Positions 7,316-61,220 of a stretch of DNA of 64,000 bases are shown here, piece by piece (within the stretch, counting starts at the first letter, position 1; every line of letters starts with the position of its first letter). Below the pieces are notes generated by a model. That model did not search any database and was not told where the DNA came from. It worked only from the letters and a program-made list of their open reading frames with translations. The position numbers and the translations under genes were made by a program. Source of the DNA: a virus (taxonomy: Duplodnaviria > Caudoviricetes). The stretch spans positions 1,869 through 65,868 of the IMG/VR virus record IMGVR_UViG_3300027892_004026, one strand, 5' to 3'.

Positions 7316-7316
7316 A

Positions 7317-8003
7317 ATGTACAAAGAATGGCCACTAGGTCAATTACCCGAAGATCTAAAGAGACCTGAATTACAACAACTGAAAAATATGGGTTATTTT
7401 TGGGATAACCCAAATGAAATAATTGAAATTTTTGAATCTAAGATTGCAGATTTTTGTGGGTCTAAATATGCAGTTGCGGTTGATTGCTGTAGTAATGCTA
7501 TTTTTTTAATTTTGAAATACATAAATAAACCACAAAAATTACAAATACCTTATTTTACATATGCTTCAGTACCAATGCAAATTTTACACGCAGGTTATGA
7601 ATTTGAATTTATTGAAAAAGAGTGGTCAGGTGTTTATAAATTAGACCCACTTGAGGTTTGGGATGGAGCCGGTAGGTGGACAAAGGGTATGTACCAAGGA
7701 GGTTTTCAAGCGTTATCATTCCAAATGAAAAAAAGACTTCCAATCGGAAGAGGTGGATCAATTTTATGTGACGATTACGAGGCTTATAAATGGTTCAAAA
7801 GAGCATGTTATGATGGTCGTAATTTAGAAAAAAACTATATGGACGATGATATTGAATTTTGTGGTTGGCATATGTATATGACTCCAGAGGACGCCGCAAG
7901 AGGGTTAATCCTAATGAATAAAATATCTGAAATTAATGATGATTCCCACAGTCATAAAAGTTATAAAGATTTAAGATCGAATACTGTTTTTATAAATGAA
8001 TAA
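7317..8003 (+). CDS. Short DegT/DnrJ/EryC1/StrS-family PLP aminotransferase
   Basis: FESKIADFCGSKYAVAV, WDGA (PLP Asp), SFQMKKRLPIGRGG (Schiff-base Lys), GWHMYM. Only 228 aa. Confidence 0.8.
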   Translation: MYKEWPLGQLPEDLKRPELQQLKNMGYFWDNPNEIIEIFESKIADFCGSKYAVAVDCCSNAIFLILKYINKPQKLQIPYFTYASVPMQILHAGYEFEFIEKEWSGVYKLDPLEVWDGAGRWTKGMYQGGFQALSFQMKKRLPIGRGGSILCDDYEAYKWFKRACYDGRNLEKNYMDDDIEFCGWHMYMTPEDAARGLILMNKISEINDDSHSHKSYKDLRSNTVFINE

Positions 8004-29660: not shown

Positions 29661-30962
29661 ATGAGTTTATTTAATAAATTACGAATAAATTTGGGATACG
29701 ACTCAATGGATTTGAATAATAACCCAATTCCTAATCTCTATAATTTAGATATTACTTCAAACCCAAAGTTAAAAAAAATGACAGTAGATACACTGTTGGA
29801 TAATACGTATGGCAATTTTGTTTCAACAACTGTCGATTTTTTTTTCGAAAAGGGGGAAAATTTTATTTATCCTATAGTATTGTTTGAAAGTTTATTATTC
29901 ACTGAGACCAATACTATCGAACTATCACAAAAAATTGTTGATTCAATAAGAAAAAACAAAGTTAAAATAGTCATATTTTATTTGACTGAGGGATTTTATG
30001 GGCATTGGGATTGTGAATATATTTGGATTAATAATTTAGTTGAAAAATATCAAATTCAGAAAAATCAATTTATTGTCGTAACTTCAAATTTATTAGCGGA
30101 TGAAAAAAAGGTTGATAAAAATTTTATAATATATCCATATCCATTTTTTTTAAACCATATTTCTTTTTTTTGTAAAATTCAAAAGTTTCACCCTTCAACG
30201 GAAGTTTATTTTAACGACCACCGTGATTTTTTATCTGATAATATTGAAAAAAACAAAGATTATCATTTTTTGTGTTTCAATGGCATTCCAAAGTTACATA
30301 GGTTACTTGTGTTCTCGGAGTTTCTAACAAAACCTGAATATAAAGATAAATTTATTTTGACTATGGGAAAAACAAAAGGTAACATAGAAAAAAATTTTTA
30401 TGAAATAGTTAAAAATGGAACTCAAGGATATATTTTGGAAAACAAGAATACAATATTAGATTTTTTTGAAAAATATGATTCTCGGAATGAAAGAACTTAC
30501 GATAGGATTAACTTGTCACAAAATGGTAGGTTAAATGGAGGGACCATCAATGTGAAAGCTCACAAAAAATGTTTTGTAAATGTTGTTACCGAAACTTTAT
30601 GGGACACTGATAATTGTGTTTTTTTCACAGAAAAAACTTTGAAACCAATATATACTTGTCAACCGTTCATAATAGTTGGTAATCCATATACCTTAAAAAA
30701 ATTAAAAAACTATGGGTTTCAAACATTTTCACGATGGTGGGACGAAAGTTATGATGAAGAGACTGATGAATATAGAAGAATTGAAAAAATATTCAAAGTT
30801 ATGAGAGATATTTCAACTTGGGATAAAGATAAGTGTAGAGAAACTTTGGTTGAAATGAATGAAATACTCAAACACAACTTTAGAATTTTGTTTACTACTA
30901 CAGAATTGAAGAAGTTGTACTCATTGTTAAAAACACATGATGATAGTGTCAAAATAATTTGA
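29661..30962 (+). CDS. GT10-like putative glycosyltransferase (paralog family)
   Basis: CFNGIPKLHR...FVNVVTET...FTEKTLKPI...QPFIIVG. Confidence 0.5.
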   Translation: MSLFNKLRINLGYDSMDLNNNPIPNLYNLDITSNPKLKKMTVDTLLDNTYGNFVSTTVDFFFEKGENFIYPIVLFESLLFTETNTIELSQKIVDSIRKNKVKIVIFYLTEGFYGHWDCEYIWINNLVEKYQIQKNQFIVVTSNLLADEKKVDKNFIIYPYPFFLNHISFFCKIQKFHPSTEVYFNDHRDFLSDNIEKNKDYHFLCFNGIPKLHRLLVFSEFLTKPEYKDKFILTMGKTKGNIEKNFYEIVKNGTQGYILENKNTILDFFEKYDSRNERTYDRINLSQNGRLNGGTINVKAHKKCFVNVVTETLWDTDNCVFFTEKTLKPIYTCQPFIIVGNPYTLKKLKNYGFQTFSRWWDESYDEETDEYRRIEKIFKVMRDISTWDKDKCRETLVEMNEILKHNFRILFTTTELKKLYSLLKTHDDSVKII

Positions 30963-31007
30963 TTTTTATTCAAAAAATAATTATATTATAACTCATTGTT
31001 CCATTAT

Positions 31008-31508
31008 ATGATAATTCAAAAAATTTTATTTTCGAAGGAAGAGTGTGATGATATAATCAATATACACAAAGTTAATTCACAAAAATGGAAAAATTATGAC
31101 CGAGAGTATAAATCGTTTTCTATAATTTTGAATGGAGAGACCGAATGGATATTTTCTAAAATGAAAAACTTCTTTGAAAAAGAAAGTGGATTAAAGATTG
31201 AAACTATCAAGAATGAAGTTCATTTTCACGTGTTTAAAACTAATGATTGGTTTGGTGTACATAATGATGCTAGGAATAATAGATTGTTTTCACTAGGAGT
31301 TTTGTTGAACGATGATTTTGATGGGGGAGAATTTAAATTGTATCTTCAAGGGGAAGAAATTGTTTTAGAAAAAAAAGTTGGTAATACATATATTTTTGAC
31401 GCAGCAATTTCACATGAAGTAACGCCAATCCAATATGGGATTCGTTATTCCCTAATATGGTTTATTCAAAATAATAATGTAAAAACTAAACCAACAAAAT
31501 TTATATAA
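31008..31508 (+). CDS. 2OG-Fe(II) oxygenase (prolyl-hydroxylase-like)
   Basis: HND...LNDDFDGGEF...HEV...RYSL. Confidence 0.85.
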   Translation: MIIQKILFSKEECDDIINIHKVNSQKWKNYDREYKSFSIILNGETEWIFSKMKNFFEKESGLKIETIKNEVHFHVFKTNDWFGVHNDARNNRLFSLGVLLNDDFDGGEFKLYLQGEEIVLEKKVGNTYIFDAAISHEVTPIQYGIRYSLIWFIQNNNVKTKPTKFI

Positions 31509-31510
31509 AT

Positions 31511-32068
31511 ATGATTATTACCATATTATGTGAGCCAAGAAGTGGTTCAACTAATTTAATTAATTGGTTTTATCATAATAAAAATTTTAGTATTTTATTT
31601 ACACCTAGTGATCCTAAATCAAAATGGTATAAAGTAGGATCTCCAAAAAATTATAAATATAATACTCGATATTTTTTGATAAAAGAAGATTATTATCACT
31701 ACAAAAATTTTGATGAATTAGTTTCCATATCAGATAAGATAATATTACTTTACAGAGAAAATACGGAGGAACAGATAGAATCTTGGATAAATGCAATAAC
31801 AACAAAAAATTGGGATAAGCCATGGGTTTCAAAAAATATAAAAAATATTAATGAAACTCAATTTTTTATTGAATTAAAAAATAGTTTCAAAAAAGAATAT
31901 TTAGATAAAGAATATTTTAAAATATCGTATGAAGAATTATATTGTCGAAATGGGTTTCAAAAAATATTAGATTACTTGGGTATAAATGAGTTAGAAAATA
32001 AAGATTTTCCATACGGACAAAAATATAGGGTAGATGCCAACAAACCAAAAATAAAAAAATTAATTTAA
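31511..32068 (+). CDS. Sulfotransferase family protein
   Basis: N-terminal PAPS-binding loop PRSGST, LYREN...ES, and ISYEEL. Confidence 0.75.
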   Translation: MIITILCEPRSGSTNLINWFYHNKNFSILFTPSDPKSKWYKVGSPKNYKYNTRYFLIKEDYYHYKNFDELVSISDKIILLYRENTEEQIESWINAITTKNWDKPWVSKNIKNINETQFFIELKNSFKKEYLDKEYFKISYEELYCRNGFQKILDYLGINELENKDFPYGQKYRVDANKPKIKKLI

Positions 32069-32074
32069 TTTATT

Positions 32075-32695
32075 ATGATTTATCAAGAGGTTATTTTTAC
32101 TAAAAAAGAATGTGAAACAATTATGAATCTTAGAAATAATCATAAATTATTTTTTGTCACACCTGAATCGTCTCTCATCAAAAACACCCGTACAGTATAT
32201 CATAAAGAAAAAAATTTTAATGGTGTTGGATACGACAATTCAAAAGATTGGGTCAAAAGGTACAACGTTTGGGATATACCAATTAATAAAGAAACTTTTT
32301 GGTTTTATGATAGAATTTACAAATGGTTTTCAGAATTGACTAATATTCAAATTGACAGGGAAAAATATTTTAATCGCAGTGATGCCGCTCACAAAATTCA
32401 TGAGTACAATATAGGAGACAAATTTGATTTACATGCCGATCAAAATGATGGAAGTATTGATAGAATTTGGAATTTGGGTATTCAATTAAACTCCAATTAC
32501 GAAGGAGGCGATTATATTTGTTATGACAAAAATAATCACCCGATTAATATTTCTAAAGAAACAGGTAACACAATAGCGTATTCCTCTGATGTGTTACATG
32601 AAATAAATGAAATTTTACAAGGAAAAAGATATTCTTTAGTTGTCAAAATCTACTCATGGGAATTATACACCAAAAAAAACAAAAGTTTTATTTAA
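32075..32695 (+). CDS. 2OG-Fe(II) oxygenase
   Basis: FDLHAD...LNSNYEGGD...HEI...RYSL. Confidence 0.85.
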   Translation: MIYQEVIFTKKECETIMNLRNNHKLFFVTPESSLIKNTRTVYHKEKNFNGVGYDNSKDWVKRYNVWDIPINKETFWFYDRIYKWFSELTNIQIDREKYFNRSDAAHKIHEYNIGDKFDLHADQNDGSIDRIWNLGIQLNSNYEGGDYICYDKNNHPINISKETGNTIAYSSDVLHEINEILQGKRYSLVVKIYSWELYTKKNKSFI

Positions 32696-33268
32696 ATGAT
32701 TTATCAAAAAAAAATTTTCTCAAAAAAAGAATGTGATTTAATTATAGATTATGCGAACCGTTATAAAGATATTTCTATAAATCCTAAAACTTTTGAACTT
32801 CACGAAAAAAATAGGATAGTAAGTCCATCTAATTTTTTTATGCAGTATTATGTGTTTGGAATACCAATGAATGATTCCACCTTTTGGGTTTATAGTAGAT
32901 TATTTAAATGGTTCGAATTGGTGACAAGTGAAAAAATGTCGAACAATTTTGGTTCATTCATTTCAACTTTACATTGTTACAAAGAAAATGATGGATTTGG
33001 AAGACACATAGATTTGACGGAAGGATTTGAAGATAGGAGGTATAATATTGGAATTCAACTTAATGAAAATTATAGTGGTGGGGACTACATATGTTGGGAC
33101 GAAGACAAAAATGAAATATTGATATCAAAAAAAGTTGGTACATCACTTTGTTATCATGCTAAAATTGAACACGAAATAAAAATGGTGACAGGTGGTGAAA
33201 GATGGTCTTTGGTTGTACCAATAACTAAGAGAATGATAGTCAATCAGAATAAACCTAAAATTTTATAA
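32696..33268 (+). CDS. 2OG-Fe(II) oxygenase
   Basis: FGRHID...LNENYSGGD...HEI...RWSL. Confidence 0.85.
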   Translation: MIYQKKIFSKKECDLIIDYANRYKDISINPKTFELHEKNRIVSPSNFFMQYYVFGIPMNDSTFWVYSRLFKWFELVTSEKMSNNFGSFISTLHCYKENDGFGRHIDLTEGFEDRRYNIGIQLNENYSGGDYICWDEDKNEILISKKVGTSLCYHAKIEHEIKMVTGGERWSLVVPITKRMIVNQNKPKIL

Positions 33269-33345
33269 TTTAGTAAATAAAAAACCTACCATGACAAATC
33301 AATCATTTTATTATAATATGTTAAAGTTAGAAATAGTAAGAAAAT

Positions 33346-33834
33346 ATGAATGAAATCAAGAAAGAATATAATTTTTTAAATCAGTCAGAAATAAAATATT
33401 TAATTACTTTATCTGAAAATTTTGTAGTACACCAATTTGATTTGTATCATCAGACTGATGTTGATAAAGGTAATTTACAAACATATTTCAACACAATTAC
33501 TAAATATATATCAGAAAATTTTGTGGGAGAGTATCAGCTCAAAGCCATAGAAATGAACAGAGTTACTGAATCAGACATTATGGATGGGTATCACCAAGAT
33601 GATTGTGATTTAACATTTGTTACTTATTTTGAAATAAATTTTGAAGGTGGTGAATTTGAATATTTAGATGAAAAAAACTCAAATCTGATTGAACCTGAGG
33701 CTAATTTGACATTAATCATGGATAAAAATCTATTACATAGAATTAGACGAGTAAAAAAAGGTGAAAGATTTTCATTAGTTTCTTTTTTTATTTTAAAACC
33801 ATCAGTTCAAAAAAAAATTAAAACTTTTATTTAA
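33346..33834 (+). CDS. 2OG-Fe(II) oxygenase
   Basis: YHQD...FEGGEF...LHRI...GERFSL. Confidence 0.8.
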   Translation: MNEIKKEYNFLNQSEIKYLITLSENFVVHQFDLYHQTDVDKGNLQTYFNTITKYISENFVGEYQLKAIEMNRVTESDIMDGYHQDDCDLTFVTYFEINFEGGEFEYLDEKNSNLIEPEANLTLIMDKNLLHRIRRVKKGERFSLVSFFILKPSVQKKIKTFI

Positions 33835-33846
33835 AAAAACAATAAT

Positions 33847-34392
33847 ATGAACAAGGTAATCTTTGAAAATACATACGGGTATAAAGATTTTATTACCGAA
33901 GAAGAAAGACTTTTTTTAGAGGAGTGGGCCATCAATAATAACTCTTATCTTAAAAGAAACGGTAAAGGACCTTATCGTAATTTTGGTAGATTGGACAGTT
34001 TATCTGACATCCCGCCACTAATAAAGGAATTAAAAACCAAACTAATAGAATTAGAATCTATTGAAAAAGTAATCGAAGCTCCAAAAAATGCTGATTGGTT
34101 AGGTATACAAAAGGAAACCGCGTTTGTTGAGCCTCATATGGATTACAATGGTCCGGATGATAGATATTACACTAGAAGATATAACATATTAATATCTTTA
34201 CCCGAAGAAGGGGGACAACCTATATATGGGAATAAAGTATTAAATGTCAAAGAGAGGATGATTTGGAGATGTGATGCTGGATTAGTAATCCACTCAAGTA
34301 TACCAAACAAAGGTAAAAAACCAAGAATAAACCTATCTTTTGGGTTCTTAATGCCAAAATCAGGTAACTCATTCGAAACTAAATTAATGTGA
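33847..34392 (+). CDS. 2OG-Fe(II) oxygenase
   Basis: PHMD...PEEGGQP...HSS...RINLSFG. Confidence 0.75.
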   Translation: MNKVIFENTYGYKDFITEEERLFLEEWAINNNSYLKRNGKGPYRNFGRLDSLSDIPPLIKELKTKLIELESIEKVIEAPKNADWLGIQKETAFVEPHMDYNGPDDRYYTRRYNILISLPEEGGQPIYGNKVLNVKERMIWRCDAGLVIHSSIPNKGKKPRINLSFGFLMPKSGNSFETKLM

Positions 34393-34537
34393 CGAACCCA
34401 CACCAATCAAATAAAGTATTATATTTGCATAAAACAAAACAAGAATATGAAAGGTGCATTAATTATAAAAAATTAGATAATATTCTGAGTTATTAGATTT
34501 CTCAAATTCTCTAAAATTAAACAAACAAACTTTATAA

Positions 34538-35164
34538 ATGAAAATTTTACTTTTATACACACCTAGAAGTGGGTCTACTTCTATAATGAGATATTTTGAA
34601 AAACTGAAGCCCGAATATCAAATTTTCAACCAACCATGGTCCTCGTGGAAAGGTACTAAAAATTATCGGTTGAATGATTTTTTAGGGATGGATAAACTTT
34701 TTGTAAAAAATACGATAGATTGGGTTATGGATAATAAAGAAGATAGTGGAAAAATGAAATCTAATTCTATTCCAACAATTCAAGAGATTTTTAATTTTTT
34801 TGATAAGGTTTTGGTCTTATCGAGAAAAGATATAACTCAACAAAGTATAAGTTTGTATTTTTCATCCGAAAATAACTCTTACTTGGAAACATATGACCGA
34901 CTTTATAATATAGAATCTATAGATGAAACAAGATTAAATGAAATAAAATCCAATCTTACAAAGGATAATGATTTGGTAAATGAATTGGTGAATCTTGGTG
35001 TTAGTCATTATTATTATGAAGACTTGTATTATGAATCTTTCAATGACTTTTTTCAAACACTGAATTTAGACTATCATAATGAATATTTCGATAGATATTT
35101 GAATACCACAAAAAGATACAAAAAAGGGGAGGTGACAAATAAAGTTGTTAAAACATTTATTTAA
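34538..35164 (+). CDS. Sulfotransferase family protein
   Basis: YTPRSGST, LSRKD...QSIS and YYYEDL. Paralog of 31511..32068. Confidence 0.75.
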   Translation: MKILLLYTPRSGSTSIMRYFEKLKPEYQIFNQPWSSWKGTKNYRLNDFLGMDKLFVKNTIDWVMDNKEDSGKMKSNSIPTIQEIFNFFDKVLVLSRKDITQQSISLYFSSENNSYLETYDRLYNIESIDETRLNEIKSNLTKDNDLVNELVNLGVSHYYYEDLYYESFNDFFQTLNLDYHNEYFDRYLNTTKRYKKGEVTNKVVKTFI

Positions 35165-35174
35165 AAATTTTTAG

Positions 35175-35182
35175 TATTTATA
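35175..35182 (+). promoter_or_regulatory. TATTTATA candidate phage promoter element
   Basis: Intergenic, 28 nt upstream of ATG 35210. The same octamer precedes three other gene starts. Confidence 0.3.
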
Positions 35183-35209
35183 TTATAGTAATTTCAATTA
35201 TTAAAAATA

Positions 35210-35488
35210 ATGGATATAGACGTAAAAAAAATTGTTTCAGCATGGATGACATCATTTAGTCCTAATGATGATGAAAAAAAGTTGGCTGAGGATAGATATA
35301 ATATTTGTTCAACTTGTGACCGAAAAGAAAAAAATTTGTTAGGGATTGATGTTTGTAAGGAATGTGGATGCCCTCTGTCAAAAAAAATTTTTACGTTGAC
35401 AGATAGAGAAACTTGTCCCTTAAAAAAATGGGATGATTTAGATAGTGAGTTTAGAAAAAATAAAAAACATAAGTATAACTTATTTTAA
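35210..35488 (+). CDS. Small Cys-rich Zn-binding protein (DUF6171-like)
   Basis: RYNICSTC...CKECGCPL..K.....CPLKKW. Confidence 0.65.
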   Translation: MDIDVKKIVSAWMTSFSPNDDEKKLAEDRYNICSTCDRKEKNLLGIDVCKECGCPLSKKIFTLTDRETCPLKKWDDLDSEFRKNKKHKYNLF

Positions 35489-35517
35489 ATAAATTAAATT
35501 AATTCGTAAAATAAAGT

Positions 35518-37050
35518 ATGAGAAGTGTATTAATAAGTTTAGATTTTATTTACAGGGAAGATGGCAGCTTGACTCCATTAGAGTTGAATACTGAAACGAA
35601 AGATGATATTGATATTTGGAATATTACAAATGATAACTTTATCGAAATAACATCACCTTTTTTCAGACATGAAGAACTAAATCAATATTTGCAGTCAAAT
35701 AACATTACAAAAATAGTTGTAATTGCAGGTAATGCTCACAGTAAATACATAAAAGCGTTCGCGGATTTTTATAATTATGAATATACTTTGGTTTCGGTTG
35801 GAAAAAACCAAGTGACAGTTCCTGAAGTCGAAGACTCAGATGATACGATTATAATAAGAATTGCTTATGATACTTATGCCTTGATTGATGATTTGTATGC
35901 GAGGGATAATTATGAGTTTCATAATCTAATTAAAAACGAATCGTTCGCAAGTCCTGTAACTTTCACTGAAAATAATTTTGATACAATTCTTAATTTTGAG
36001 GATTCCCAAGACGGAACAATACCAAATTATGTTTTGAAGGCAAGAACACCAGGATACGTCAAATCCGAATATCCTAAAATTTACAAATTTGATAATGTTT
36101 CTCAACTTGAAAACTTGAAGTCCAATTTAAAAAATAATGAATTTATTCAAAAGTTTGAATATAATGAAAATCTTTCACTGATAGACCAAAGAACACATCA
36201 TTTAAGGAGTATGAATTTGATATGTGGAGAAAATTTAGATGTTGTTAATTTCATAAATTACAAGTCAAGTAATCTTGTTTCTATTGATAATACAAAATTA
36301 ATTAAAGACTATGAAATTAATGAAAATAATAGATTACACCCATTAAATGAATGTAAATATTATCCAACTTACTTGTCCAAGTATGGATTCAGATACCATT
36401 TCGATAATGAAGACAAAGTTTTAATGTGGGACAACAGTCTTAAACTTATTCAAGATGTAAACATAGGGGATATTTTTAAAGGAGTAAAATTTCCTCAGGG
36501 GCATGAAATTTTTCCTAATGACCCTGAATATGTAAATTTAAACGATATTGAAAATTTTGAATTGGAGGAGACAAAAGTAGTAAGTATTCAAGGGGGACAA
36601 CAGGGTATTTTTGCCAATATTACAGCATCGAATGAAGAATATGGTACTCTTTCTTGGTTTGACGGTATAAGTAATTTATATTTAGTATCTGGCGGAGATG
36701 TTCCAAATGGATTTGCTTTTTATCAAAAAGGGGGAGAGTTAGAGATTGGACAAAGGATATATGTCTATAACAAAAGTTCAAATACTATGATAGATTTTAT
36801 CGTTGAAGATTTATATTTTGATTTGAAAGATTTAACTTGTTATATCCTTTCTTTGTATAAAACACCTGAATTTTTAATTCAACTCGAACAAAATCATGAT
36901 CTTTACTTGGTACAACACAATAGTTGTAATGCTTATGGTTGTTACTATAATAGATATCCAGGTAGATGCACTGGTACATGTGATGATTGTGGAAAAGGTT
37001 CTCCCCTTTGTAATAATTGTGGGGGAGATGCTGGAGTACTGTGTTATTAA
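35518..37050 (+). CDS. Circularly permuted ATP-grasp-like domain + Hint domain + Cys-rich C-terminal peptide
   Basis: N-terminal DFIYREDGSLTPLELNT (D..ExN), later YVLKARTPG and FIQKF. Hint block A-like FDNEDKVLMWDNSLKLIQDVNIGD, block F-like CYILSL and terminal LVQHN|S, then 42 aa with 8 Cys. Confidence 0.65.
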   Translation: MRSVLISLDFIYREDGSLTPLELNTETKDDIDIWNITNDNFIEITSPFFRHEELNQYLQSNNITKIVVIAGNAHSKYIKAFADFYNYEYTLVSVGKNQVTVPEVEDSDDTIIIRIAYDTYALIDDLYARDNYEFHNLIKNESFASPVTFTENNFDTILNFEDSQDGTIPNYVLKARTPGYVKSEYPKIYKFDNVSQLENLKSNLKNNEFIQKFEYNENLSLIDQRTHHLRSMNLICGENLDVVNFINYKSSNLVSIDNTKLIKDYEINENNRLHPLNECKYYPTYLSKYGFRYHFDNEDKVLMWDNSLKLIQDVNIGDIFKGVKFPQGHEIFPNDPEYVNLNDIENFELEETKVVSIQGGQQGIFANITASNEEYGTLSWFDGISNLYLVSGGDVPNGFAFYQKGGELEIGQRIYVYNKSSNTMIDFIVEDLYFDLKDLTCYILSLYKTPEFLIQLEQNHDLYLVQHNSCNAYGCYYNRYPGRCTGTCDDCGKGSPLCNNCGGDAGVLCY

Positions 37051-37072
37051 TTATGAATTTAAAAATAAAAAA

Positions 37073-37189
37073 ATGGAAACTAATAAAATAATCAAACCAA
37101 AAACATTACCAGTTACAGATTCACAAAGGGAATCTATGAATATTATCACAAATAAAATAATTCAATTAATTAAGGATAAACATTTGTGA
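37073..37189 (+). CDS. Small 38-aa helical protein
   Basis: A-rich start context (aaaataaaaaaATG). It translates METNKIIKPKTLPVTDSQRESMNIITNKIIQLIKDKHL and fills the gap. It is the true end of the track's 36896..37189 ORF. Confidence 0.6.
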   Translation: METNKIIKPKTLPVTDSQRESMNIITNKIIQLIKDKHL

Positions 37190-37219
37190 TTCGCATAATA
37201 ATCAAATTGAGTTAGTTTT

Positions 37220-37759
37220 ATGGAAAAAATTTTTATTTCAGAAAATTTTTTATCTAAAAACGAGTGTGATAATATTCTAAAAACAATTTTTGATAAAACT
37301 ACCTTGGAAGTTGCTCGAATCGGGTCACAAGGAGGTCATATCCATACGCAATTAAGAAAGTCATCAACCTCATTCATCACGGAATTAGGAGACTTAAATC
37401 AAAAACTAGTTAGGGTACTTTCAGATAAAGTAAAAGTTAAAGGTGGTAATCCGACTAATCTGTCAGACTTTCAACTCACAAAGTATGATGTTGGGGACTA
37501 TTTTAATTGGCACATTGATCCTCCACACAGAGATTATACAATAATTATTTTTTTGAACAATGATTATCAAGGAGGAGAATTGGAAATTAAAGATGAGAAC
37601 GAAAAAGTTTTTAGAATAGAAAAAAAAGAAGGAAAACTTGTTGTATTCCCTTCTTTCCTTTTTCATCGTGTCACCAAAATTGAAAAAGGAATAAGATATT
37701 CATTAGTGAATTGGGTAGCTATTGAAAAAACACTGAATTATAAAAAAACTTTGATTTAG
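37220..37759 (+). CDS. 2OG-Fe(II) oxygenase (prolyl-hydroxylase-like)
   Basis: FNWHID...LNNDYQGGEL...FPSFLFHRV...GIRYSLVNW. Confidence 0.88.
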   Translation: MEKIFISENFLSKNECDNILKTIFDKTTLEVARIGSQGGHIHTQLRKSSTSFITELGDLNQKLVRVLSDKVKVKGGNPTNLSDFQLTKYDVGDYFNWHIDPPHRDYTIIIFLNNDYQGGELEIKDENEKVFRIEKKEGKLVVFPSFLFHRVTKIEKGIRYSLVNWVAIEKTLNYKKTLI

Positions 37760-37777
37760 TTAAATTAGACTCAAACT

Positions 37778-38599
37778 ATGAATGTTTTAAAATTTTGGAA
37801 TACTGATTCGTTCGAAATTTCTAGTTATAGATACGGAATATCCGAAAGAAAAAATTCTACGTATACAACATCTGGTACAGACACAACAGGAAAATGTTTG
37901 TATCAATACAATGAATTAGGATTTAGAGGAGACTCTATGTATAAACAAGGTTTTAAAATTCTATCAATAGGAGATTCCAACACTGAAGGAGTAGGATTGA
38001 ATAACAATGATACATGGTCATCGAGGTTTTCGAATTTTTTTAGTAATGGAGTAAATATGAATTTTGGTACGGGAGGAAGAAGTAATGATTTTATCGCTAG
38101 ATGTTTGTTAACATATTTCGATTTGATTAAACCTGATTTAGTTTTGGTCATGTACACCTCTCCTCAACGCAGAGAAGTATATACGAAATATAATACAATA
38201 GAGCCTTTTATGCCAACCGCTTCTTGGGGGTATACTAAAGAAACTGAGGAGGGGCAGCATATTCAGAAAAATCTGATAGAAATACAAAATGATGGTGAAG
38301 ATTTTGTAAATTGGTATAAAAATCATCTTTTGATTAAATATTTTTTACAATCAAAAAATTGTAATTGGTTGTGGAACGGATGGATGTTAAATTATGAAGG
38401 GTATGATGAGTTCAATCGTTATGATGGTGACTATGGTAAATTTTTAGATTATGCGGTTGATGGAACTCATCCAGGTATTCTTCATAATAGATTGTACTCA
38501 AAAAATTTGGTTAACCACATCAAATTAAATTTTTTAGATTATATTCCCATAAATAATTTTAAAGAAGATGCGAATGATGTTCACACTAAACTCTTTTAA
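37778..38599 (+). CDS. SGNH/GDSL-like protein
   Basis: YNELGFRG leader, IGDSNT, NFGTGGRSN and DGTHPG. Paralog of 9873..10727. Confidence 0.7.
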   Translation: MNVLKFWNTDSFEISSYRYGISERKNSTYTTSGTDTTGKCLYQYNELGFRGDSMYKQGFKILSIGDSNTEGVGLNNNDTWSSRFSNFFSNGVNMNFGTGGRSNDFIARCLLTYFDLIKPDLVLVMYTSPQRREVYTKYNTIEPFMPTASWGYTKETEEGQHIQKNLIEIQNDGEDFVNWYKNHLLIKYFLQSKNCNWLWNGWMLNYEGYDEFNRYDGDYGKFLDYAVDGTHPGILHNRLYSKNLVNHIKLNFLDYIPINNFKEDANDVHTKLF

Positions 38600-38626: not shown

Positions 38627-40918
38627 TCATTGTAATAAATTTTGTATTTTGTTCATAACCATTTCTGATGTAATAGATTTTTGACAGATATGTTGTCTCT
38701 CAGTTCCTTTGTAAACTGGACACCAATCCCAATCACCAGAGTCAAATGTTAAAACAGGATCATTCCAACATTTAATACAAACATTATTTGAAACTCTTGT
38801 CATGTTATATGAAAACTCGTGATTGTTTTCACTAAATCCTGCAATCATAACTGTTTTTTTACCTAGTGCCCAATTCATCCAAGATAATCCTGAACTTAAT
38901 CCTACGAAGAAATCTGCATGGAATAGAATATTCATAACTTCAGGCCAATCTTTATCATGATTATGTATGACACCATCAATATTATATTTCTTTAACGATA
39001 AAATCACAACTTCATATCCTAACTCTTTTAACCTTTTTGAAAGAGTAGCCCAATTTTCAAAAACCCATTCTTTACAACCAGCAGTTGATTGAGGGCCAAA
39101 AACAACATATTTCTTTTTTATTGGTCTTGCTTTAGGTGTGAAGTTTAAAGTATAATTCATCTCTTTATAGTTTAAACCTAAAATATCCGTTGCGGTTTGT
39201 TGTAGTGGAATTAAATTGATTTGAGTTGGGTAATTGTCAAACTTTCTCCAAGTTTGGTCATCATCTTTAAACCAACCTAATCTATAAACCACATCACAAT
39301 TAACTGACTTACCAGGTTTTATGAATGAAATGTCTTTATAGTCATTTGAACCTTCAAACCATTCATTATGGAATGTACTTAAAATGACCTTACATTTTTT
39401 CTGATTCATTAATTCAATAGCGTATGGAGCCCATGCTAATGTATCACCGACGGCTTTTGTTTCAAAAGAAATTAGAACAGTTTTATTTTCCAAAGTAAAT
39501 CTATCGACAATTTCCCCGTTAATTTTTATAATCCAAGGGATGTAATATTTTTTGGAACTGGCAGTCCACATGTTATTGGTAATGGTTTGAGAATGAATTA
39601 CTTGATTGTTATCACCATTAATGAATTCAACAAAGTATTCTTTTTTGTCATCACCTAAAACTTCAACTCTTGGGCCATCTAAGTAATTGATAATAACTCT
39701 ATTTTCTTTTATTGGTCTATCTAACCAAGGTTTTCTTTCTAAGAAATCATTGACTGTTTCTAGCCCTATTTCAGCAATGCGTTCCCAATTAAACTCTTGT
39801 CTAATCTGTTCTGATTCTACTAATGATAATGTTTTATATTTTTCATAATCACCATAAACCGAAAACATCTTTTCACCCAAATCATTAAAATCAGGTTCAT
39901 AATAATTTCCAACATTATCGTTGAAATGGTTGTATGTACTGGCACTTACTGGTAATTCGTGTGATATCTTAACAGGAATACCTTTACCTTGTGCGAATTC
40001 TAATTGGCCTGAACAATCTGAATAGATTGACGGTGTACCGCAAGCCATTGCTTCAATAAGAGGTAAATTCCAACCCTCAGCTCTTGCACAAGACACAAAC
40101 ACACTACAAGACTTTAATAATCTAATGTATTCTTCTCTTGGTGGAAAATGGAGAATTTTAATTCTATCATCCTCCAACCCATAATGTTTTAATCTTTCCT
40201 CAGTTGATTTTAAACCATCATTTGAGAATGGGTTATCAACAGAAACAATTAGTTCAACAGGTTCGTTTTTATCAAATGTTTTTACGAAGGTTTCAATGAC
40301 TTCCTTAATTGACTTTCGATAATCCCACCTTCCCGCTAAAAAGAATGTAAACTTATCTTTCGTTAATGGGTGAGTAACTTCTTTATCAGGAAAGAAAGTA
40401 TTCACATCGACACCTTCAGGTACCACTTTAATTTTATTTGGGTCATAACCTTGGGCAATGGTACAATCTCTTTGCCATTTTGACGGAACCCACATCTCAT
40501 CAAATTCTTTTAACTTATTAAAGTATTCTTGTGGTTGTAAGGTTGACTCCCATACATTGTAGGCAATTTTTGGGCCATCGTAGTTATCATAAAAAATGTG
40601 ATGATTTGTTTCGCATAATACAATATTAACATCAGGTTCAAATTCTTTAGATACATCAGGGTATAAAGAGAAGTCACTTCTTGTTTTATCTGAGTTCCAA
40701 AGGATTTGTTTGTATAATAATTTTTTATCAATTTCATTAAAATAATGTTCATTATCATGAGCATTTTCATTATATCCCTCCCAAGAGTCACCAACGGTAA
40801 AGTTTCTAACTTTAATATCCGCGTGTTTATCTAAATGTCTAAAAAAATCTCTTGTATGTTGATTATATCCTGTGTTACCAACGTAAGAACCGTGGGCGTA
40901 AATTTTAGGTCTGATCAT
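38627..40918 (-). CDS. GT4 glycosyltransferase fused to TibC/Aah-like autotransporter O-heptosyltransferase domain
   Basis: GT4 signature AEGWNLPLIE (Ex7E). C-terminal AVGDTLAW, GLSSGLSW and a four-Cys set CIKCWND...WCP...ICQK. Confidence 0.8.
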   Translation of the reverse strand: MIRPKIYAHGSYVGNTGYNQHTRDFFRHLDKHADIKVRNFTVGDSWEGYNENAHDNEHYFNEIDKKLLYKQILWNSDKTRSDFSLYPDVSKEFEPDVNIVLCETNHHIFYDNYDGPKIAYNVWESTLQPQEYFNKLKEFDEMWVPSKWQRDCTIAQGYDPNKIKVVPEGVDVNTFFPDKEVTHPLTKDKFTFFLAGRWDYRKSIKEVIETFVKTFDKNEPVELIVSVDNPFSNDGLKSTEERLKHYGLEDDRIKILHFPPREEYIRLLKSCSVFVSCARAEGWNLPLIEAMACGTPSIYSDCSGQLEFAQGKGIPVKISHELPVSASTYNHFNDNVGNYYEPDFNDLGEKMFSVYGDYEKYKTLSLVESEQIRQEFNWERIAEIGLETVNDFLERKPWLDRPIKENRVIINYLDGPRVEVLGDDKKEYFVEFINGDNNQVIHSQTITNNMWTASSKKYYIPWIIKINGEIVDRFTLENKTVLISFETKAVGDTLAWAPYAIELMNQKKCKVILSTFHNEWFEGSNDYKDISFIKPGKSVNCDVVYRLGWFKDDDQTWRKFDNYPTQINLIPLQQTATDILGLNYKEMNYTLNFTPKARPIKKKYVVFGPQSTAGCKEWVFENWATLSKRLKELGYEVVILSLKKYNIDGVIHNHDKDWPEVMNILFHADFFVGLSSGLSWMNWALGKKTVMIAGFSENNHEFSYNMTRVSNNVCIKCWNDPVLTFDSGDWDWCPVYKGTERQHICQKSITSEMVMNKIQNLLQ

Positions 40919-48087: not shown

Positions 48088-51000
48088 ATGGGTATAATAT
48101 CAGTAAATTTTTATAGTGGGGGAACAGATGAATATCTGAAAGCCCTTACATGCTCCTCAACATCTTATAACTTAAACTTTGATGGAGACCCTGGAAATCC
48201 GAATCCAAACTTTTGTGATCTTGATGAATTGTTGTCTTGTGATATTACACCATTTGAAGCTCAAATTGCTGTAGGTCAAGAATTTTATCTTTCATCTGCA
48301 GGGCAAATTAGGGAATTTATACGACCATCTGCGGCGTCTGTTGCTTTTCAAAATGACAGTTTTGCCGGAGGGTGCCAACCCTGTTCTGTAGAAACTCCAA
48401 CTCCAACTCCCACACCATCACCTACTCCTATTGATTCATGTGTTTGTTATCAATATGCAAATGATGGAGAACCTACCGGTATAAATTCAATAACTTATTT
48501 AGATTGTGATCATGTACCGCAATCTATAAATAACGTTCCTTTTAGCCCTGCGGTTAACTATTTTTGTGCTATACTCGGAAGTGTTACTGCAACTGTAGGT
48601 TTAACTATTATCCAAGTTGATGAAAGTCTTTGTCCTGGAGGTGGATGTGTTGAAGGATTCACACCTACACCAACTCCAACGAATACTGAAACTCCAACAG
48701 AAACACCTACAAATACTGTAACACCAACAAGTACCTCAACTACAACACCTACAAATACTGGAACACCAACAAGCACCCCAACCCAAACCACTACGGTTGG
48801 ATTGACTCCAACTGCGACCGAAACCCAAACACCGACTCCAACTGAAACACCAACACAAACTCAGACTCCTACAGAAACCTCAACTCAGACTCCTACTCAA
48901 ACGGCAACGAATACTGCCACGCCAACAAATACTACGACTCAAACTCCTACTGAAACTCCAACACAAACGGCAACGAATACTGCCACGCCAACGAATACTA
49001 CGACTCAAACTCCTACTAACACTGCAACACAGACTCAAACTCCTACAAATACTGCAACACAGACTCAAACTCCAACTAATACCGCAACACAGACTCAAAC
49101 TCCTACAAATACTGCAACACAGACTCAAACTCCAACTAATACCGCAACACAAACTCCAACAACGACACAAACACCGTCACCAACAAATAGTATTGTTATA
49201 CAATTTCAAGATTGTACAAATGGTTCAAACATATTCAGATTTGGAGGACCAAGTATTCCTACTGTAATTGGTGATGTATATTGTATTACTAATAGTATTG
49301 AATTCGAAGGGTGTGCAACAATTGTAAGTGGGTTCACTAGTGGGACTCTATACAATTCTGTTGGAGTTACATTCACACAGGTTCCAACATGTGCGGATTC
49401 TTCATGTCCAAGAACCGCTCTAACCGCCGCTTTATTAACAAAATGCTCCGACGGAAGTGTATTATACGCCAATGTAAATGAAGATACTGCATTTGTTGGT
49501 GCTGCTTATCTTTATAATGGGGAGTGTTATAGTTTCGTTGAATTCTCAGGGCCAGGTGGGCCTGATTTTGGTGACCCTGATTTTGATGATTGTTCTTTTT
49601 GTGTACCTACGTCAACTCCGACCAATACACCACAACCTACACCGACGAATACTCCGACAGTATCACCGTCACCATCGGCATGTGCATTTACTGACTTCTG
49701 TTTCTATACCACATTACCATCTTTCTCAGGGTACAATGGAAACTATGAATCGGCCGGAACTTACAACTCAAGAATTTATTATTCGGGAGATGGAATAACT
49801 TCTGCGGTTATCTATCATACTGGTAGTTTTTGGTGTTTAAGCGATACCTTGGGAGGAACTTGTTTATTAAGAGGTTCCAATCCTTGTAATTCACAATGCC
49901 CTGATATTTCTTCAAATGATTTTGAAGGAGGAATTTGCCCAACTCCAACGCCAACTGGTGTTGATTGTTCAATATTTGATTTCAATGCTTATTTTGATTG
50001 TGATTGGGAGCCATTACCAACGCCAACTCCGAGTGTTGCTTGTGATGATGTTAATTTCATCATAGATTCAATAGGAGTAACTCCTACACCAACTCCTTCG
50101 GGTAACTTCTGTTCTGGTGTGGGTATTGATTTTAGTTTAAGTGGATTCACTTCAACAACTCCAACTGTGACATTGACACCTTCAGTTACACTTACAAGAA
50201 CCGTGTCCATTGAAGGTAGTGTTACTTTTGAAATGTTGGATGAAACATTTAGTTGTGTATCTGCTAAGGTATTAACTGATTGTGGTAGTGGAGAAGAATT
50301 CTATACGACCGATAGCTTGTCCTTCTTGGGAACTCCTGTATTAATTGGTATGACAATGTTTGTCCAAGTTAACGGAGTGAATCGTTGTGTGATTTATTCT
50401 CGAGATGACCAAAACTTATCATCTAATAGCACACTTGGAGCCATTGTACAAATCTATTCTTCTTGTGAATACTGTAGTACAATACCAACTCCAACACCAA
50501 CTACTACATCAACACCGACGAACACTCCTACATCAACTGCAGGAATTACACCAAGTGTAACTAAAACACAAACTCCAACACCATCTCAGACTGCAACTTT
50601 AGGAACTACACCTCCACCAACACCGACTCAAACTAGAACTCCAACCGCTACAAACACGCCAACACCATCTATAACCGCATCTCCATCAGCAACACCTAAT
50701 TTCCTATATGTATATGAGTCTTGTAACCGTATCGGTGGAGGAAGAGGAACAATAACTCAAGTTATCCAAACACAACCAGTATCTTTCACAATTGCGGTAA
50801 ATGAAACATTCAAAGATAACGATGGAAATTGTTGGTATTATATTGGCCAGTTTAATACATCTTATATTGCACCACCAAAAGTTACGCCAATAAACTTTGG
50901 AGGTAATTATTTTATAGGTGTTTCAAGTCAAACTTATTCTAATTGTGAGACCTGTGCTACAGGAAACATCGGAGCATTTGGAGAAAGTGGTGTGAGTGAT

Positions 51001-51207
51001 ATAAGTATTTTTGACGCTTGTTCGGACGCTATTATCAATCCGAAAACATTATATTCAAATTGTGAGACGATTAATGTTGGATGTGTATTATATACAGATT
51101 CAACTTTACAGAATGTAGTTAGTGAAATATATGTATACCATCAAGGAGCCAATTGGGACCTTAATGGATCTGGTGGAGTAATCGGATTATCATCAACACA
51201 ATGTTAA
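48088..51207 (+). CDS. Thr/Pro-repeat (mucin-like) putative virion protein with Cys-rich modules
   Basis: Long TPT(N/Q/E) tracts separate several ~60-70 aa modules with paired Cys. Confidence 0.65.
49021..49140 (+). repeat. 30-bp coding tandem repeat x4 ([10 protein letters not shown])
   Basis: ac(t/c)gcaacacagactcaaactcc(taca/aact)aat repeated in frame, with a 60-bp higher-order period. Confidence 0.9.
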
Positions 51208-51218
51208 ATAAATAAGAA

Positions 51219-51443
51219 ATGGGAGTACAAGTTACAATAAATAATATTTCAGGAGTAACACCTTATGATATTTATGTCTGTCAAGTTGATGGGTCAGGTT
51301 GTTTTTATATATCAACTATAGGTTCAACATTTCCATATATATTTGATATCCCTTCACCATATGATTTATCTCCAAACTATATGGTTAAGGCGATTGATGC
51401 AAACAATTGCATAATTTCAGGTACTAGTGCTGTAATATTATGA
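51219..51443 (+). CDS. 74-aa beta-rich protein homologous to the N-terminal module of the next gene
   Basis: VQVTI...TPYDIYVC...CFYIST...FPYIFDIPSPYD...D..NCI aligns with QQVTI...TPVEIFYC...CVYVST...FPFTFSVPPPYD...D..GCI. Confidence 0.75.
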   Translation: MGVQVTINNISGVTPYDIYVCQVDGSGCFYISTIGSTFPYIFDIPSPYDLSPNYMVKAIDANNCIISGTSAVIL

Positions 51444-54400
51444 GTCAACAAGTAACAATTACATCAGTAACCGCAAATACACCAGTAGAAATATTCTACT
51501 GTGATTCATTTAGCGCGAACTGTGTATACGTTTCAACCGTTTCAGTTTTTCCATTTACTTTCTCTGTACCTCCTCCTTATGATGAATCGAATATAGTAAT
51601 AAAAATCGAGGATACTAGTGGTTGTATTGATGGTGAAATAATATTTGTTACTCCTACACCAACTTCAAGTGTGACTCCAACAGTTACTATAACACCAACA
51701 AACACGTCAACTCAAACAAATACTCCGACGGTAAGTCCGACGGTAAGTCCAACAAATACCTTCACTCCGACTCAGACACAAACAAATACTCCTACTCCGT
51801 CAGTAACACCAGTATTTTCACTTCACTTGATTGGGCAAAATACATTTTCAACTTCAGCAAACACATGTAATGACCAATTAACTTTTGATAATTACTATAC
51901 CTACCTGAATGAAGCGGACACAGTACCTGTAGTTGGAGTTAAAATTTATCAAACAGCCTTCGGTGGAGTTCTATTTAATCCTTATAACGGTAATAACCAA
52001 TATACTAAATTTACTTTCGGAGGAAATGAGTATGCTGTTGAGGTTGATACTAGTGGAACCATAGTAAGTTTCGACCTATGCGGTGTATTGGTTACTGTTA
52101 CACCAACTAATACACCTACGGCAACAAATACACCTACCAATACCACAACTTCAACATTAACACCTACAAATACACAGACAAATACACAAACAATCACCCC
52201 AACAAATACTACAACTCAGACAGTGACTCCGTCCACAACTGCCACTTTTGGATTGACTCCAACTGCTACCGAGACACAAACTCCTACACAAACAGCGACA
52301 CAAACTCAAACTCCAACAAATACTGAAACTGCGACACCAACTACAACATCGACACCAACTCAAACTCCGACTGCAACTATTGGAAATAACGAAATAACTT
52401 TAGATGGATTTATATTTTCTGGATCAGTAGGGGCGGGATTCTCGGCAACATCTGAGGCACCTGTGGCAGACGATTTCACGGTCAATTTTAATGCTGTCTT
52501 GGGAGTTACAACTGGTGGAACTATTACAATACCGGTTTCAATATTAATTCCAATCGGTGAATCTTCTGGATTTACTCAAACATTCGTAAATGGTGACTAT
52601 AATAGTTTGAACCAAACTGCGGCACTGACAGATATTAGTTATTCAACTTCTGCGACAACATCATTTACTTTCGCTTCAGAATTTTTCTTTAATGTAACCC
52701 CAACGCCAACTCAATCACCAACTCCAACAGAAACACCAACACAAACTGTTACTCGAACTCCTACAAATACTGCTACTGAGACTTTAACTAACACTCCCAC
52801 TCAAACACCAACCAAAACCGCGACTAATACTCCAACAAATACTGAGACACCGACTAATACTCCTACTGAGACACCTACAAATACTCCTACAGAAACGCCT
52901 GCTAACACTCAAACTCCGTCACAAACTGCGACTGCGACTCCTACAGAAACACCGGTACCAACTGCTTCTGAAACTCCTACAAATACTCCAACTAATACTG
53001 AGACATCTACTCCAACTAATACAGAAACTCCAACGCAAACAGGAACTGCTGCGGTAACACCAACCACAACAACAACTTTAACAGCAACTAATACAGAAAC
53101 TCCGACAAATACTGCTACTGAAACACCTACAAATACTCAAACTCCAACTGAAACACCGACAGAGACACCTACAAACACTCCGAGTGAGACTCCTACTAAT
53201 ACTCCAACTAATACTGAAACATCTACGCCAACTAATACTGAAACACCAACAAATACGCCAACGCCAGAATCTACACCTACTGAGACACCGACTGAAACAC
53301 CTACAGAAACACCTACACCAGAAGCTACAACTACACCAACTAATACACCTACTGAGACACCAACTAATACCGCAAGTGTAACACCTACTAATACTACAAG
53401 TGTAACACCTACTAACACATCAACTCCAACAAATACTGCAGGTGAAACTCCAACAGTTACTCCAACAGTTACTCCAACAAAAACAGTTACACCTACAGTT
53501 ACTTCAACTCCTACAGGAACTTCGGTAACACCAACTGTAACACCAACCAAAACAACAACACCAACTGTAACACCAACTTCAACACCTTGTACAGTTTTAG
53601 ATGGAAGTTTATTATTTAACGGTAGTAGTCAATCATTAGGATTAAGTCCTGGTGTGATTTTTGGAGTCGGTTCATACACTGTTGAGGGATGGTTCTATAA
53701 TACCTCAGGCTTCGTTAATAAAGGGATATTGGGGGTTCCTGTTAGTAGTAATATAGGAGCGTTAAACTTGTTCTTTGGAAGTAGTACAGCAATCGTTACA
53801 GACAAAAATGGTGGAGGAGGTCAATATACCTATAACATGGCATCCGCTATTAGTGTAAATGCTTGGCACTATTTCATATACAATAGTAATTCTGATGGAA
53901 CTACAGCGGTTTACATTGATGGTGTAAGAAGTCTAAATACTCAGGTTGACACATATAATTATACAACCGCAACTGATACTGTTGGTAGATTCTATTCAGG
54001 ATATTGGCCAGGTTATTGGACTAATATGAGAATAACTAAAGGAACTGCGGTCTATAATTCAAATTTAACAACTCAACTTAATCCAAAAGCGCCTCTTACA
54101 TCGTTACCAAACACTAAATACTTAATGTTAGGTGCGTCAATAACAACGGATTCGTCTGGTACTCAAACTGTAACAAACATTGGTGGTGTTACATTAAGTA
54201 CTTTACAACCTTGTCCAGGACCAACTCCAACTCCTACGGTAACGGCAACTAATACTGTTACTCCAACTAACACTCCGACAAATACTACAACATCAACTCA
54301 AACACCGACCAACACTGCAAGTAATACTCAAACACCAAGTAATACTGCAACTAATACACAAACACCAACTCAAACACCAACCAATACTCAAACACCAACA

Positions 54401-55870: not shown

Positions 55871-55889
55871 AAATAAAGATAGATATAAA

Positions 55890-58643: not shown

Positions 58644-58704
58644 TGAATAAACCTATACAAAAAATACTTAAAACCTATAATTATAGGATATAATAAATTA
58701 ATAG

Positions 58705-61194: not shown

Positions 61195-61208
61195 AAAAAC
61201 AGAACAAC

Positions 61209-61216
61209 TATTTATA
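61209..61216 (+). promoter_or_regulatory. TATTTATA candidate phage promoter element
   Basis: Intergenic, 5 nt upstream of ATG 61221. Confidence 0.3.
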
Positions 61217-61220
61217 GACA

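Follow-up and report, generated by a model that had tools for sequence, protein, structure and literature searches.

A freshwater phage gene that joins a predicted permuted ATP-grasp ligase, a degenerate Hint domain and an exchangeable cysteine-rich cargo

The fusion gene and its ligase and Hint domains

Here we describe a three-part gene in a 64,000 nucleotide stretch of phage DNA, which we call the window (positions 1,869 to 65,868 of IMG/VR record IMGVR_UViG_3300027892_004026, a 65.9 kb entry rated 20% complete). The gene, which we will refer to as the fusion gene, is an open frame of 510 amino acids (aa) on the plus strand (35518-37050). Its product appears to consist of an N-terminal ATP-grasp ligase domain, a Hint domain that ends in His-Asn, and a short C-terminal cargo that is rich in cysteine (Table 1). 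The neighbours of the gene encode a carbamoyltransferase, five small PF13640 2-oxoglutarate- and Fe(II)-dependent (2OG-Fe(II)) oxygenases, a GDSL-like protein and glycosyltransferases. This architecture may be a new viral way of making, releasing or attaching small knotted peptides. An initial annotation, made from the sequence alone, had known of no described system that combines these parts, and we likewise found no description of a ligase, a Hint domain and a Cys peptide in one protein in the literature.

No model in Pfam, PHROG or NCBIfam matches the 510 aa protein, and a profile of its family had no significant match among PDB sequences. A search of 5.8 billion proteins returned 141 relatives, and 117 of them were aligned for an AlphaFold2 model of the whole protein. 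The predicted local distance difference test score (pLDDT) of this model is 88.6 and its predicted template modelling score is 0.84; only residues 470-510 are uncertain. The ligase-Hint module is widespread, as a profile search of 1.84 billion representatives found it in at least 343 metagenomic protein clusters (50% identity). The conservation counts given below refer to 235 full-length members of the family, except that the columns of H467 and N468 hold 231.

As judged from the models, the family is related to permuted ATP-grasps at the level of fold only. Foldseek searches with the full model returned YjfC (E 3.3e-6), together with YgiC, glutathionylspermidine synthase (GspS) and eukaryotic glutathione synthetases (E 3e-6 to 1e-4). 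When a model of residues 1-291 was compared by VIA with 48,161 chains, all ten matches with a Z of at least 5 were permuted ATP-grasps, and each aligned from model residue 1. The best was GspS (2io7; Z 7.2, root-mean-square deviation (rmsd) 4.7, 203 aligned residues, model 1-271 on chain 310-615). Classical ATP-grasps (RimK, LysX/ArgX, DcsG and Escherichia coli GshB) could be aligned only from about model residue 62. This pattern is the signature of a circular permutation. The Z scores are modest because the domain-only model is poor (it was built from 13 sequences and has a mediocre pLDDT of 67), and the class assignment leans on the consistency of the hit list, not on Z alone.

Residues D9, E22, N24, R114, D124, K174 and R230 are invariant in the family. 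The Mg site formed by D9, E22 and N24 lies near the N-terminus, before K174 and R230. Counted by offset alone, these three residues would fall near D318, E330 and N332 of GspS. GspS, YgiC/YjfC and eukaryotic glutathione synthetase (2io7, 7uka, 7uk6, 1m0w) have the same permuted topology, with Asp...Glu-x-Asn before the ATP-binding Lys, and enzymes of the GspS and glutathione synthetase class couple an amine to a short peptide whose C-terminal carboxylate they have activated. The ligase domain of the fusion protein differs from this class in being smaller (293 aa) and fused to a Hint domain, and it is only about 10-12% identical to its members; the curated models GSP_synth, CP_ATPgrasp and GSH_synth_ATP did not match it. 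The initial annotation had assigned the domain to the permuted GspS class. The Foldseek and VIA searches and the invariant active-site residues bear this out, and the motifs that it quoted (D9...E22-L-N24-T25, V172-L-K174, I210-Q-K-F and H467-N468, with a tail of 42 aa that holds eight Cys and five Tyr) are all present.

The second domain, residues 294-468, matched the Hints of NpuDnaB, Mtu RecA, BIL and Hedgehog proteins in the VIA search (Z 16.0-16.5, rmsd 2.1-2.4 over 134-148 of about 140-170 residues). Foldseek returned BIL2, the Mtu RecA and DnaB inteins and the Hedgehog Hint for this part (E 4e-7 to 1e-4), with template modelling scores of 0.68-0.79 when normalised by target length. The structural alignments returned the same range that the initial annotation had proposed for the Hint domain, and they run from residue 1 of the inteins, Mtu RecA included, to the terminal Asn. 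Thus, H294 lies at the Cys1 site and N468 takes the place of the cyclising Asn.

The two ends of the Hint domain differ in conservation. H467 is present in 224 and N468 in 230 of the 231 members, whereas Hint position 1 is occupied by His in 141 of 235 members and elsewhere by residues such as Lys (20), Leu (19), Gly (11) and Ile (9). In the window protein it is not a nucleophilic Cys, Ser or Thr. The initial annotation was therefore right that an N-terminal Cys or Ser is missing. It had also noted the lack of an obvious block-B His; in the sequence alignment of the family, we saw no conserved His besides H294 and H467. An invariant ligase site and His-Asn beside a variable Hint position 1 suggest that the ligase and the C-terminal end of the Hint are both under strict constraint, but that the N-terminal Hint chemistry is gone. 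The residue after N468 is Ser in the window protein and most often Ala (76), Gly (19), Phe (18) or Pro (17) in the family. Without Cys1 and without a conserved nucleophile at this +1 position, splicing is not expected. Inteins have Cys1 and a +1 Cys, Ser or Thr, and their exteins are rejoined; this Hint lacks Cys1, is flanked by a ligase and a polymorphic cargo, and is predicted to cut the N468-S469 bond only.

The cargo after the Hint domain

What follows His-Asn differs greatly among the relatives. A Cys peptide of 21-68 aa (median 44) with 4, 6, 8, 10 or 12 Cys is found in 139 members. In 45 members a Cys peptide is followed directly by a Peptidase_S74 intramolecular-chaperone domain, and in nine by a Hint that begins with Cys. 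At least nine members have one to three canonical mini-intein-like Hints 0-8 residues past His-Asn, 15 have a long cargo that is poor in Cys, and four have a stub of only 5-7 residues. Adhesin-like domains are found among the long cargos; one relative of this form contains BACON domains and is encoded just upstream of a tail-sheath gene. Judged by sequence, the ligase-Hint pair is the constant module and the C-terminal cargo is exchangeable. The initial annotation had recognised only a Cys peptide as cargo and was too narrow in this respect, as the cargo can differ entirely.

In five of the relatives (P0257, P0260, P0262, P0268 and P0269), one to three tandem Hints stand directly after the degenerate Hint. 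They begin with Cys and end in ...VHN, after which come only Lys, Lys-Lys or Lys-Lys-Phe.

The presence of canonical Hints in tandem after the first one might suggest that the first Hint is a decayed intein, or another selfish Hint, that came by chance to separate a ligase gene from a small Cys-rich one. We find this hardly credible. The ligase-Hint junction and His-Asn are conserved across the 235 full-length members, and the ligase-only sequences that we recovered are all short (108-322 aa). Additionally, the first Hint has neither Cys1 nor a conserved +1 nucleophile, Ala being the commonest residue there.

The forms with a second processing domain are the most informative. The S74 domains begin directly past the last Cys of the peptide, and the Ser-x4-Lys dyad is present in all 41 S74-type sequences that were picked by a motif scan. 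In these forms, and in those with a second Hint, a self-cleaving end lies on either side of the peptide, and no other indirect evidence speaks as strongly for its excision. The window protein has neither a Peptidase_S74 domain nor a second Hint, and its last residue is Y510.

It is possible that no processing occurs. The Hint would then be a structural spacer and the Cys tail a permanent, zinc- or disulfide-stabilised domain of a glycan or small-molecule ligase. This idea draws on the location of the gene among enzymes that modify sugars and metabolites, on the absence of the canonical helper residues for Asn cyclisation, and on the tail itself, which has two CxxC motifs six residues apart, as in zinc ribbons, and a non-significant similarity to RING fingers (E 2-4). 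We think it quite unlikely. His-Asn is invariant in sequences with as little as about 28% identity, although the other catalytic residues of the Hint have been lost, and relatives freely swap the module behind it or do without one. Where a self-cleaving domain has been added, it stands exactly at the distal end of the tail, and Cys counts of 6 and 10, which are common, fit pairing better than Cys4 zinc sites. The initial annotation had proposed that autocleavage frees the tail. The invariant His-Asn, the exchangeable cargo and the second self-cleaving domain at the far end of the peptide together strongly suggest release, and we regard it as likely that N468 cyclises and releases the tail.

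The peptides have several features in common. The number of Cys is even in all 139 peptide tails. As counts of 6 and 10 are among them, disulfide pairing is favoured over zinc, and this narrows the earlier proposal of a peptide that is knotted by disulfides or metal. On the pattern of Cys residues, it is rather probable that the tail of the window protein forms four disulfides instead of binding zinc. Lys is also present in each of the 139 tails, as a single residue in 101 of them; Arg is absent from 75. This Lys stands either in a Cys-x-Lys motif 17-21 residues before the C-terminus, as in the window protein, or at the very C-terminus. Some tails, such as the P0153 and P0147 ones, are devoid of Asp and Glu, which rules out an internal side-chain cross-link of the graspetide kind as the general reaction.

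The peptide evolves quickly around a fixed scaffold. In the near family, conservation reaches 97-100% in the Cys columns and 97% at K493, whereas the other tail columns range from 14 to 68%. Mean pairwise identity in the near family falls from 51% in the ligase to 38% in the Hint and 22% at the tail positions other than Cys. It had been suggested that the tail might be hypervariable while His-Asn is conserved; His-Asn is conserved indeed, and the tail varies in its loops but keeps its Cys scaffold and K493. Compared with the closest relative (96% identical), 17 of 126 nucleotides differ in the tail (13.5%) and 32 of 1404 in the body (2.3%). The ratio of non-synonymous to synonymous substitution rates (dN/dS) is 0.66 for the tail and 0.13 and 0.27 for the body. 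The synonymous rate is also raised in the tail (0.20, compared with 0.06-0.08; window 36922-37047 against L009:7405-7530), and the cluster of differences could reflect recombination or a mutation hot spot. A diversity-generating retroelement is a further candidate cause.

This clustering is also what one might expect if the cargo were a polymorphic effector. In that case the Hint would free a toxin, a receptor blocker or an adhesin directed at the host or at competing phages, the small gene downstream would encode the antidote, and the ligase would be a passenger. A cleaving Hint, a polymorphic C-terminal module and a small gene make up the layout of PT-HINT toxins (PMC3482391). We consider an effector of this type very unlikely. 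The protein has no trafficking or secretion domain, and its N-terminus is the ligase core. Immunity genes vary with their toxin, but the small gene remains similar when the cargo is replaced completely. No member has a changed ligase site, so the ligase is not a passenger, and no cargo matched known toxin families.

Partner genes, shared C-termini and a model

Two small genes accompany the fusion gene (Table 1); both had been missed in the initial annotation. The first encodes a protein of 92 aa with six Cys, which adjoins the ligase-Hint gene in eight of 12 contexts (the window and the relatives' loci L002, L004, L005, L008, L009, L010 and L013) and is not adjacent in L006, L011, L014 and L015. 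We had considered that this protein might occur with Cys-rich cargo only, as it did in six of six contexts. This was refuted by L008 and L013, where the cargo is Cys-poor and the protein is present, and by L014, where the cargo is Cys-rich and the protein is absent. An uncalled homologue of 84 aa lies at L008:5153-5407, downstream of a 1667 aa relative that bears BACON domains.

Table 1. Features of the fusion gene and its surroundings in the window
Feature	Position	Strand	Evidence
Circularly permuted ATP-grasp ligase domain (predicted), residues 1-293	35518..36396	+	Foldseek, VIA search, conservation
Hint domain, residues 294-468, H294 at Cys1 position, H467-N468 at end	36397..36921	+	AlphaFold2 model, VIA, conservation
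42 aa cargo peptide, residues 469-510 and stop; eight Cys, five Tyr, single Lys K493 (CxxCGK)	36922..37050	+	Sequence
92 aa partner, six invariant Cys (CxxC...CxxCxCP...CP..KW), zinc-ribbon-like	35210..35488	+	Weak DUF6171 match; phrog_13558 (2e-10)
38 aa partner open reading frame, amphipathic C-terminal helix, end ...KIIQLIKDKHL	37073..37189	+	Independent calls in relatives, alignable
13-gene block around the fusion gene (five PF13640 2OG-Fe(II) oxygenases, GDSL-like protein, unknowns)	29661..38599	+	Shared C-termini

The second partner is a small helical open reading frame (ORF) of 37-48 aa. In the window it was hidden by a spurious ORF of 97 aa (36896-37189) that overlaps the end of the fusion gene; the real ORF encodes 38 aa. 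It lies directly downstream of the ligase-Hint gene in L002, L004, L005, L006, L009, L010, L011, L014 and L015, which include very distant members, and upstream of it in L008. It is present in every context that can be read on both flanks of the ligase-Hint gene and can be aligned across wholly different cargos. In the L008 subfamily, where the small ORF is upstream (58-150), the gene order of the trio is permuted. In L006 (7159-7536) and L011 (4645-5058), a gene for a SET-domain protein (protein lysine methyltransferase-like) follows the ligase-Hint gene and the small ORF; the cargo there is a stub or tandem Hints.

The proteins encoded around the fusion gene share a C-terminal tail. The pattern Lys-x(0-2)-hydrophobic-hydrophobic-COOH ends 11 of 13 ORFs in 29661-38599, compared with three of 38 elsewhere in the window (Fisher p 5e-7), and it is found on proteins of unrelated folds (...KTFI, ...KKLI, ...KTLI, ...TKLF). 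The 92 aa partner bears it as well (...KYNLF), as does the SET-domain product of L006 and L011. The same tails occur around the homologues in five loci of distant phages (L002, L005, L006, L011 and L014). In a single control, the dioxygenase cluster of cyanophage S-RSM4, which has no fusion gene, the shared tail is absent. When an oxygenase of the window is aligned with its homologues from cultured phages, the alignment stops 10-14 residues before its end. The tail that the neighbouring enzymes have in common suggests a code for docking or ligation. As docking motifs, the tails could recruit tailoring enzymes to the tethered peptide.

If the tails are instead a ligation code, then the fusion protein might be a protein-tagging ligase. 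The Hint would expose an amine of the cargo, either the alpha-amine of residue 469 or K493, and the ATP-grasp would activate the tailed proteins or the 38 aa peptide at their C-terminal carboxylate and join them to this amine. Each fusion protein would deliver its own cargo once. Several observations speak for tagging. The structural relatives GspS and glutathione synthetase activate the C-terminal carboxylates of peptides, otherwise unrelated proteins share a C-terminal tail only where the fusion gene occurs, the cargo Lys is obligatory, and the small ORF accompanies the gene in all contexts readable on both sides. Any cargo module could be delivered in this way, BACON domains included. We still think that tagging is unlikely. 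There is no evident biological reason to put a knotted peptide on a dozen dioxygenases, a single cargo Lys cannot serve many donors, and the last residues of the small ORF are not constant (KHL, KHV, AHS, ANT, DNS). As for its chemistry, an ATP-driven single-turnover protein ligation, in which the ATP-grasp would replace the thioester half of intein chemistry and attach the exchangeable cargo, be it a knotted peptide or an adhesin domain, to the tailed proteins or the 38 aa peptide, seems quite improbable to us. If true, it would be a virus-encoded tagging of defined phage proteins that is unrelated to ubiquitin-like or sortase chemistry.

Based on these observations, we propose a model in which the fusion protein is a self-processing enzyme-plus-cargo fusion: Asn cyclisation frees a mini-protein of the disulfide type, and the ligase forms an amide bond in the same pathway. 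We hold this model with moderate confidence. The first part of the model concerns the ligase. We propose that the N-terminal domain is enzymatically active and uses ATP to ligate a carboxylate to an amine, as a member of the class that activates peptides at their C-terminal carboxylate. The second part concerns the Hint, which would have lost its thioester chemistry but kept its terminal His-Asn. Cyclisation of N468 would cut the N468-S469 bond and free the 42-residue tail with a new alpha-amine. The freed tail would be a small mini-protein, probably with four disulfides, with fast-evolving loops and an obligatory single Lys.

The final part of the model involves what the ligase does. It may form an amide bond that involves the cargo Lys, the new N-terminus or the C-terminal carboxylate, and it may work together with the two small conserved partner proteins and with the enzyme block that is marked by the common C-terminal tail. 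That the ligase forms an amide bond in the same pathway is fairly probable on the conservation pattern, because we never see the ligase without the Hint, and the ligase site does not vary even when the cargo changes. There are three candidates for the bond. A tailed protein or the 38 aa peptide could be linked through its C-terminal carboxylate to K493 or to the new alpha-amine, K493 could be joined to the peptide's own C-terminus, or, by analogy with GspS, the C-terminus of the peptide could be joined to a small amine. The initial annotation had supposed that the peptide is modified by the ligase fused to it and by the enzymes encoded nearby. This is an inference, and the Lys and the shared tails fit it and ligation to other proteins equally well.

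Several points weigh against our model. Members whose cargo is a stub of 5-7 aa or tandem Hints alone keep an intact ligase site, and the ligase must thus be independent of the Cys peptide as such. The block-F His and Asp, which help Asn cyclisation in inteins, are missing from the Hint, and cleavage could therefore be slow or dependent on a trigger. Since residues 1-24 belong to the ligase core, there is no signal peptide. The peptide would be made in the reducing cytoplasm, and its disulfides would need an oxidant or would have to await lysis. The tail evolves two to five times faster than the body, but its dN/dS stays below 1 and does not demonstrate positive selection. Confidence in the modelled tail is low (pLDDT 49-67), and no known fold or family matched it in Pfam and PHROG, among PDB sequences searched with the family profile or in the protein atlas. 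Finally, the analysis shows the folds, the conserved catalytic residues, the polymorphic cargo, the partner genes and the shared tails; cleavage, disulfides, ligase activity and the joined partners are inferred.

Related systems and the surrounding phage genome

Of the systems that we compared, none unites a ligase with a cleavage-only Hint and polymorphic Cys peptides. The best structural matches of the Hint include BIL domains and the Tetrahymena BUBL loci (6y75/6tmm, 2lwy). In BUBL, a ubiquitin-like domain is reportedly flanked by BIL domains. The relatives P0047 and P0055 are similar in that their cargo lies between a Hint that would cleave at its C-terminus and a Hint with Cys1. Unlike BUBL, they carry a fused ligase, their first Hint lacks a position 1 nucleophile, and a Cys peptide takes the place of the ubiquitin-like domain.

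Two kinds of peptide biosynthesis offer further comparisons. Borosin precursors of the OphMA type carry the modifying enzyme and its own core peptide in one polypeptide, but the enzyme is a methyltransferase and the protease is external. Enzyme and peptide substrate also form one polypeptide in the fusion protein, which differs by its ligase and its Hint. In graspetide pathways, a classical, non-permuted ATP-grasp forms amide or ester bonds in separate precursors that have leader peptides. Here the ligase is permuted, the peptide is fused downstream of the enzyme, and, as mentioned, some tails lack Asp and Glu.

In PT-HINT proteins (PF07591), a Hint stands directly before a polymorphic C-terminal module and is thought to release it autoproteolytically (Zhang et al., 2012; PMC3482391). 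The likeness to the fusion protein lies in this position of the Hint, directly upstream of an exchangeable C-terminal cargo. The fusion protein differs in that it has no secretion or stalk region, has an ATP-grasp at its N-terminus and is encoded by a phage. Its cargo is mostly a Cys peptide of 21-68 aa and not an enzymatic toxin, the adjacent small gene is constant, and the PT-HINT profile did not match its Hint. The release of a polymorphic cargo by a Hint is thus known in kind; the ligase partner and the tailed neighbouring enzymes are unprecedented.

Aquatic phages carry arrays of genes for 2OG-Fe(II) oxygenases, halogenases, sulfotransferases and the synthesis of 3'-phosphoadenosine-5'-phosphosulphate, for which a role in peptide or metabolite modification has been proposed (Iyer et al., 2010; PMC2938197). 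Enzymes of the same types as in the cyanophage dioxygenase arrays surround the fusion gene and its relatives. No ligase-Hint gene is named in the passages that we consulted (PMC2938197), and the cultured cyanophage cluster that we examined has neither the fusion gene nor the shared C-terminal tails.

If our model is correct, aquatic phages would have a widespread, undescribed route to small disulfide-rich peptides, whose precursor is fused to a ligase and freed by a crippled Hint. This would be a new logic both for ribosomal peptide biosynthesis and for the biology of Hint domains. The peptide would be a candidate substrate for the puzzling dioxygenase, halogenase and sulfotransferase arrays of aquatic phages (PMC2938197). 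The family would also provide a natural collection of knotted peptides, hypervariable but built on a fixed scaffold, and a self-cleaving, ATP-dependent ligase cassette could serve as a tool for protein engineering.

We propose that the carrier of the fusion gene is a large, uncultured, myovirus-like phage of fresh water. An earlier marine reading, based on cyanophage- and pelagiphage-like neighbours, was dropped because a search of sequencing runs led to freshwater lakes: near-identical DNA is carried by many freshwater and lake metagenomes. Cultured cyanophages and pelagiphages are related to it only distantly. In a collection of 50,697 phage records, tblastn with P0001, P0121, P0229 and the 92 aa protein gave no match, and a megablast search of the region against the phage record collection gave none either; both results apply to that collection.

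Contigs from metatranscriptome libraries of four lake studies match the cassette exactly. One of them covers 36352-37271, which includes the Hint, the tail, the 38 aa ORF and the start of the next gene. These are assembled contigs, from which the ends, strand and level of transcripts cannot be read. They hint weakly at transcription of the cassette, and DNA carry-over could explain them.

Radical S-adenosylmethionine (SAM) enzymes and large proteins resembling tail fibres are encoded farther from the fusion gene. Three of the radical-SAM type are found at 1965-9915, upstream of a long run of sugar-modifying genes, and one of the three has a B12-binding domain. The region 48088-63410 holds five large ORFs (729-1476 aa) with a GC content of 34-40%, compared with about 29% for the window, and with a reversed GC skew. 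Four of the five match phrog_15511, one has a segment like T4 gp10, and ORF 55890-58643 has a terminal repeat rich in Thr, Pro and Glu; the five are probably tail fibres. The block of co-directional genes is broken by the sole large gene on the opposite strand (38627-40918, minus strand), which encodes a 763 aa fusion of glycosyltransferases of the GT4 and GT9 (heptosyltransferase-like) types.

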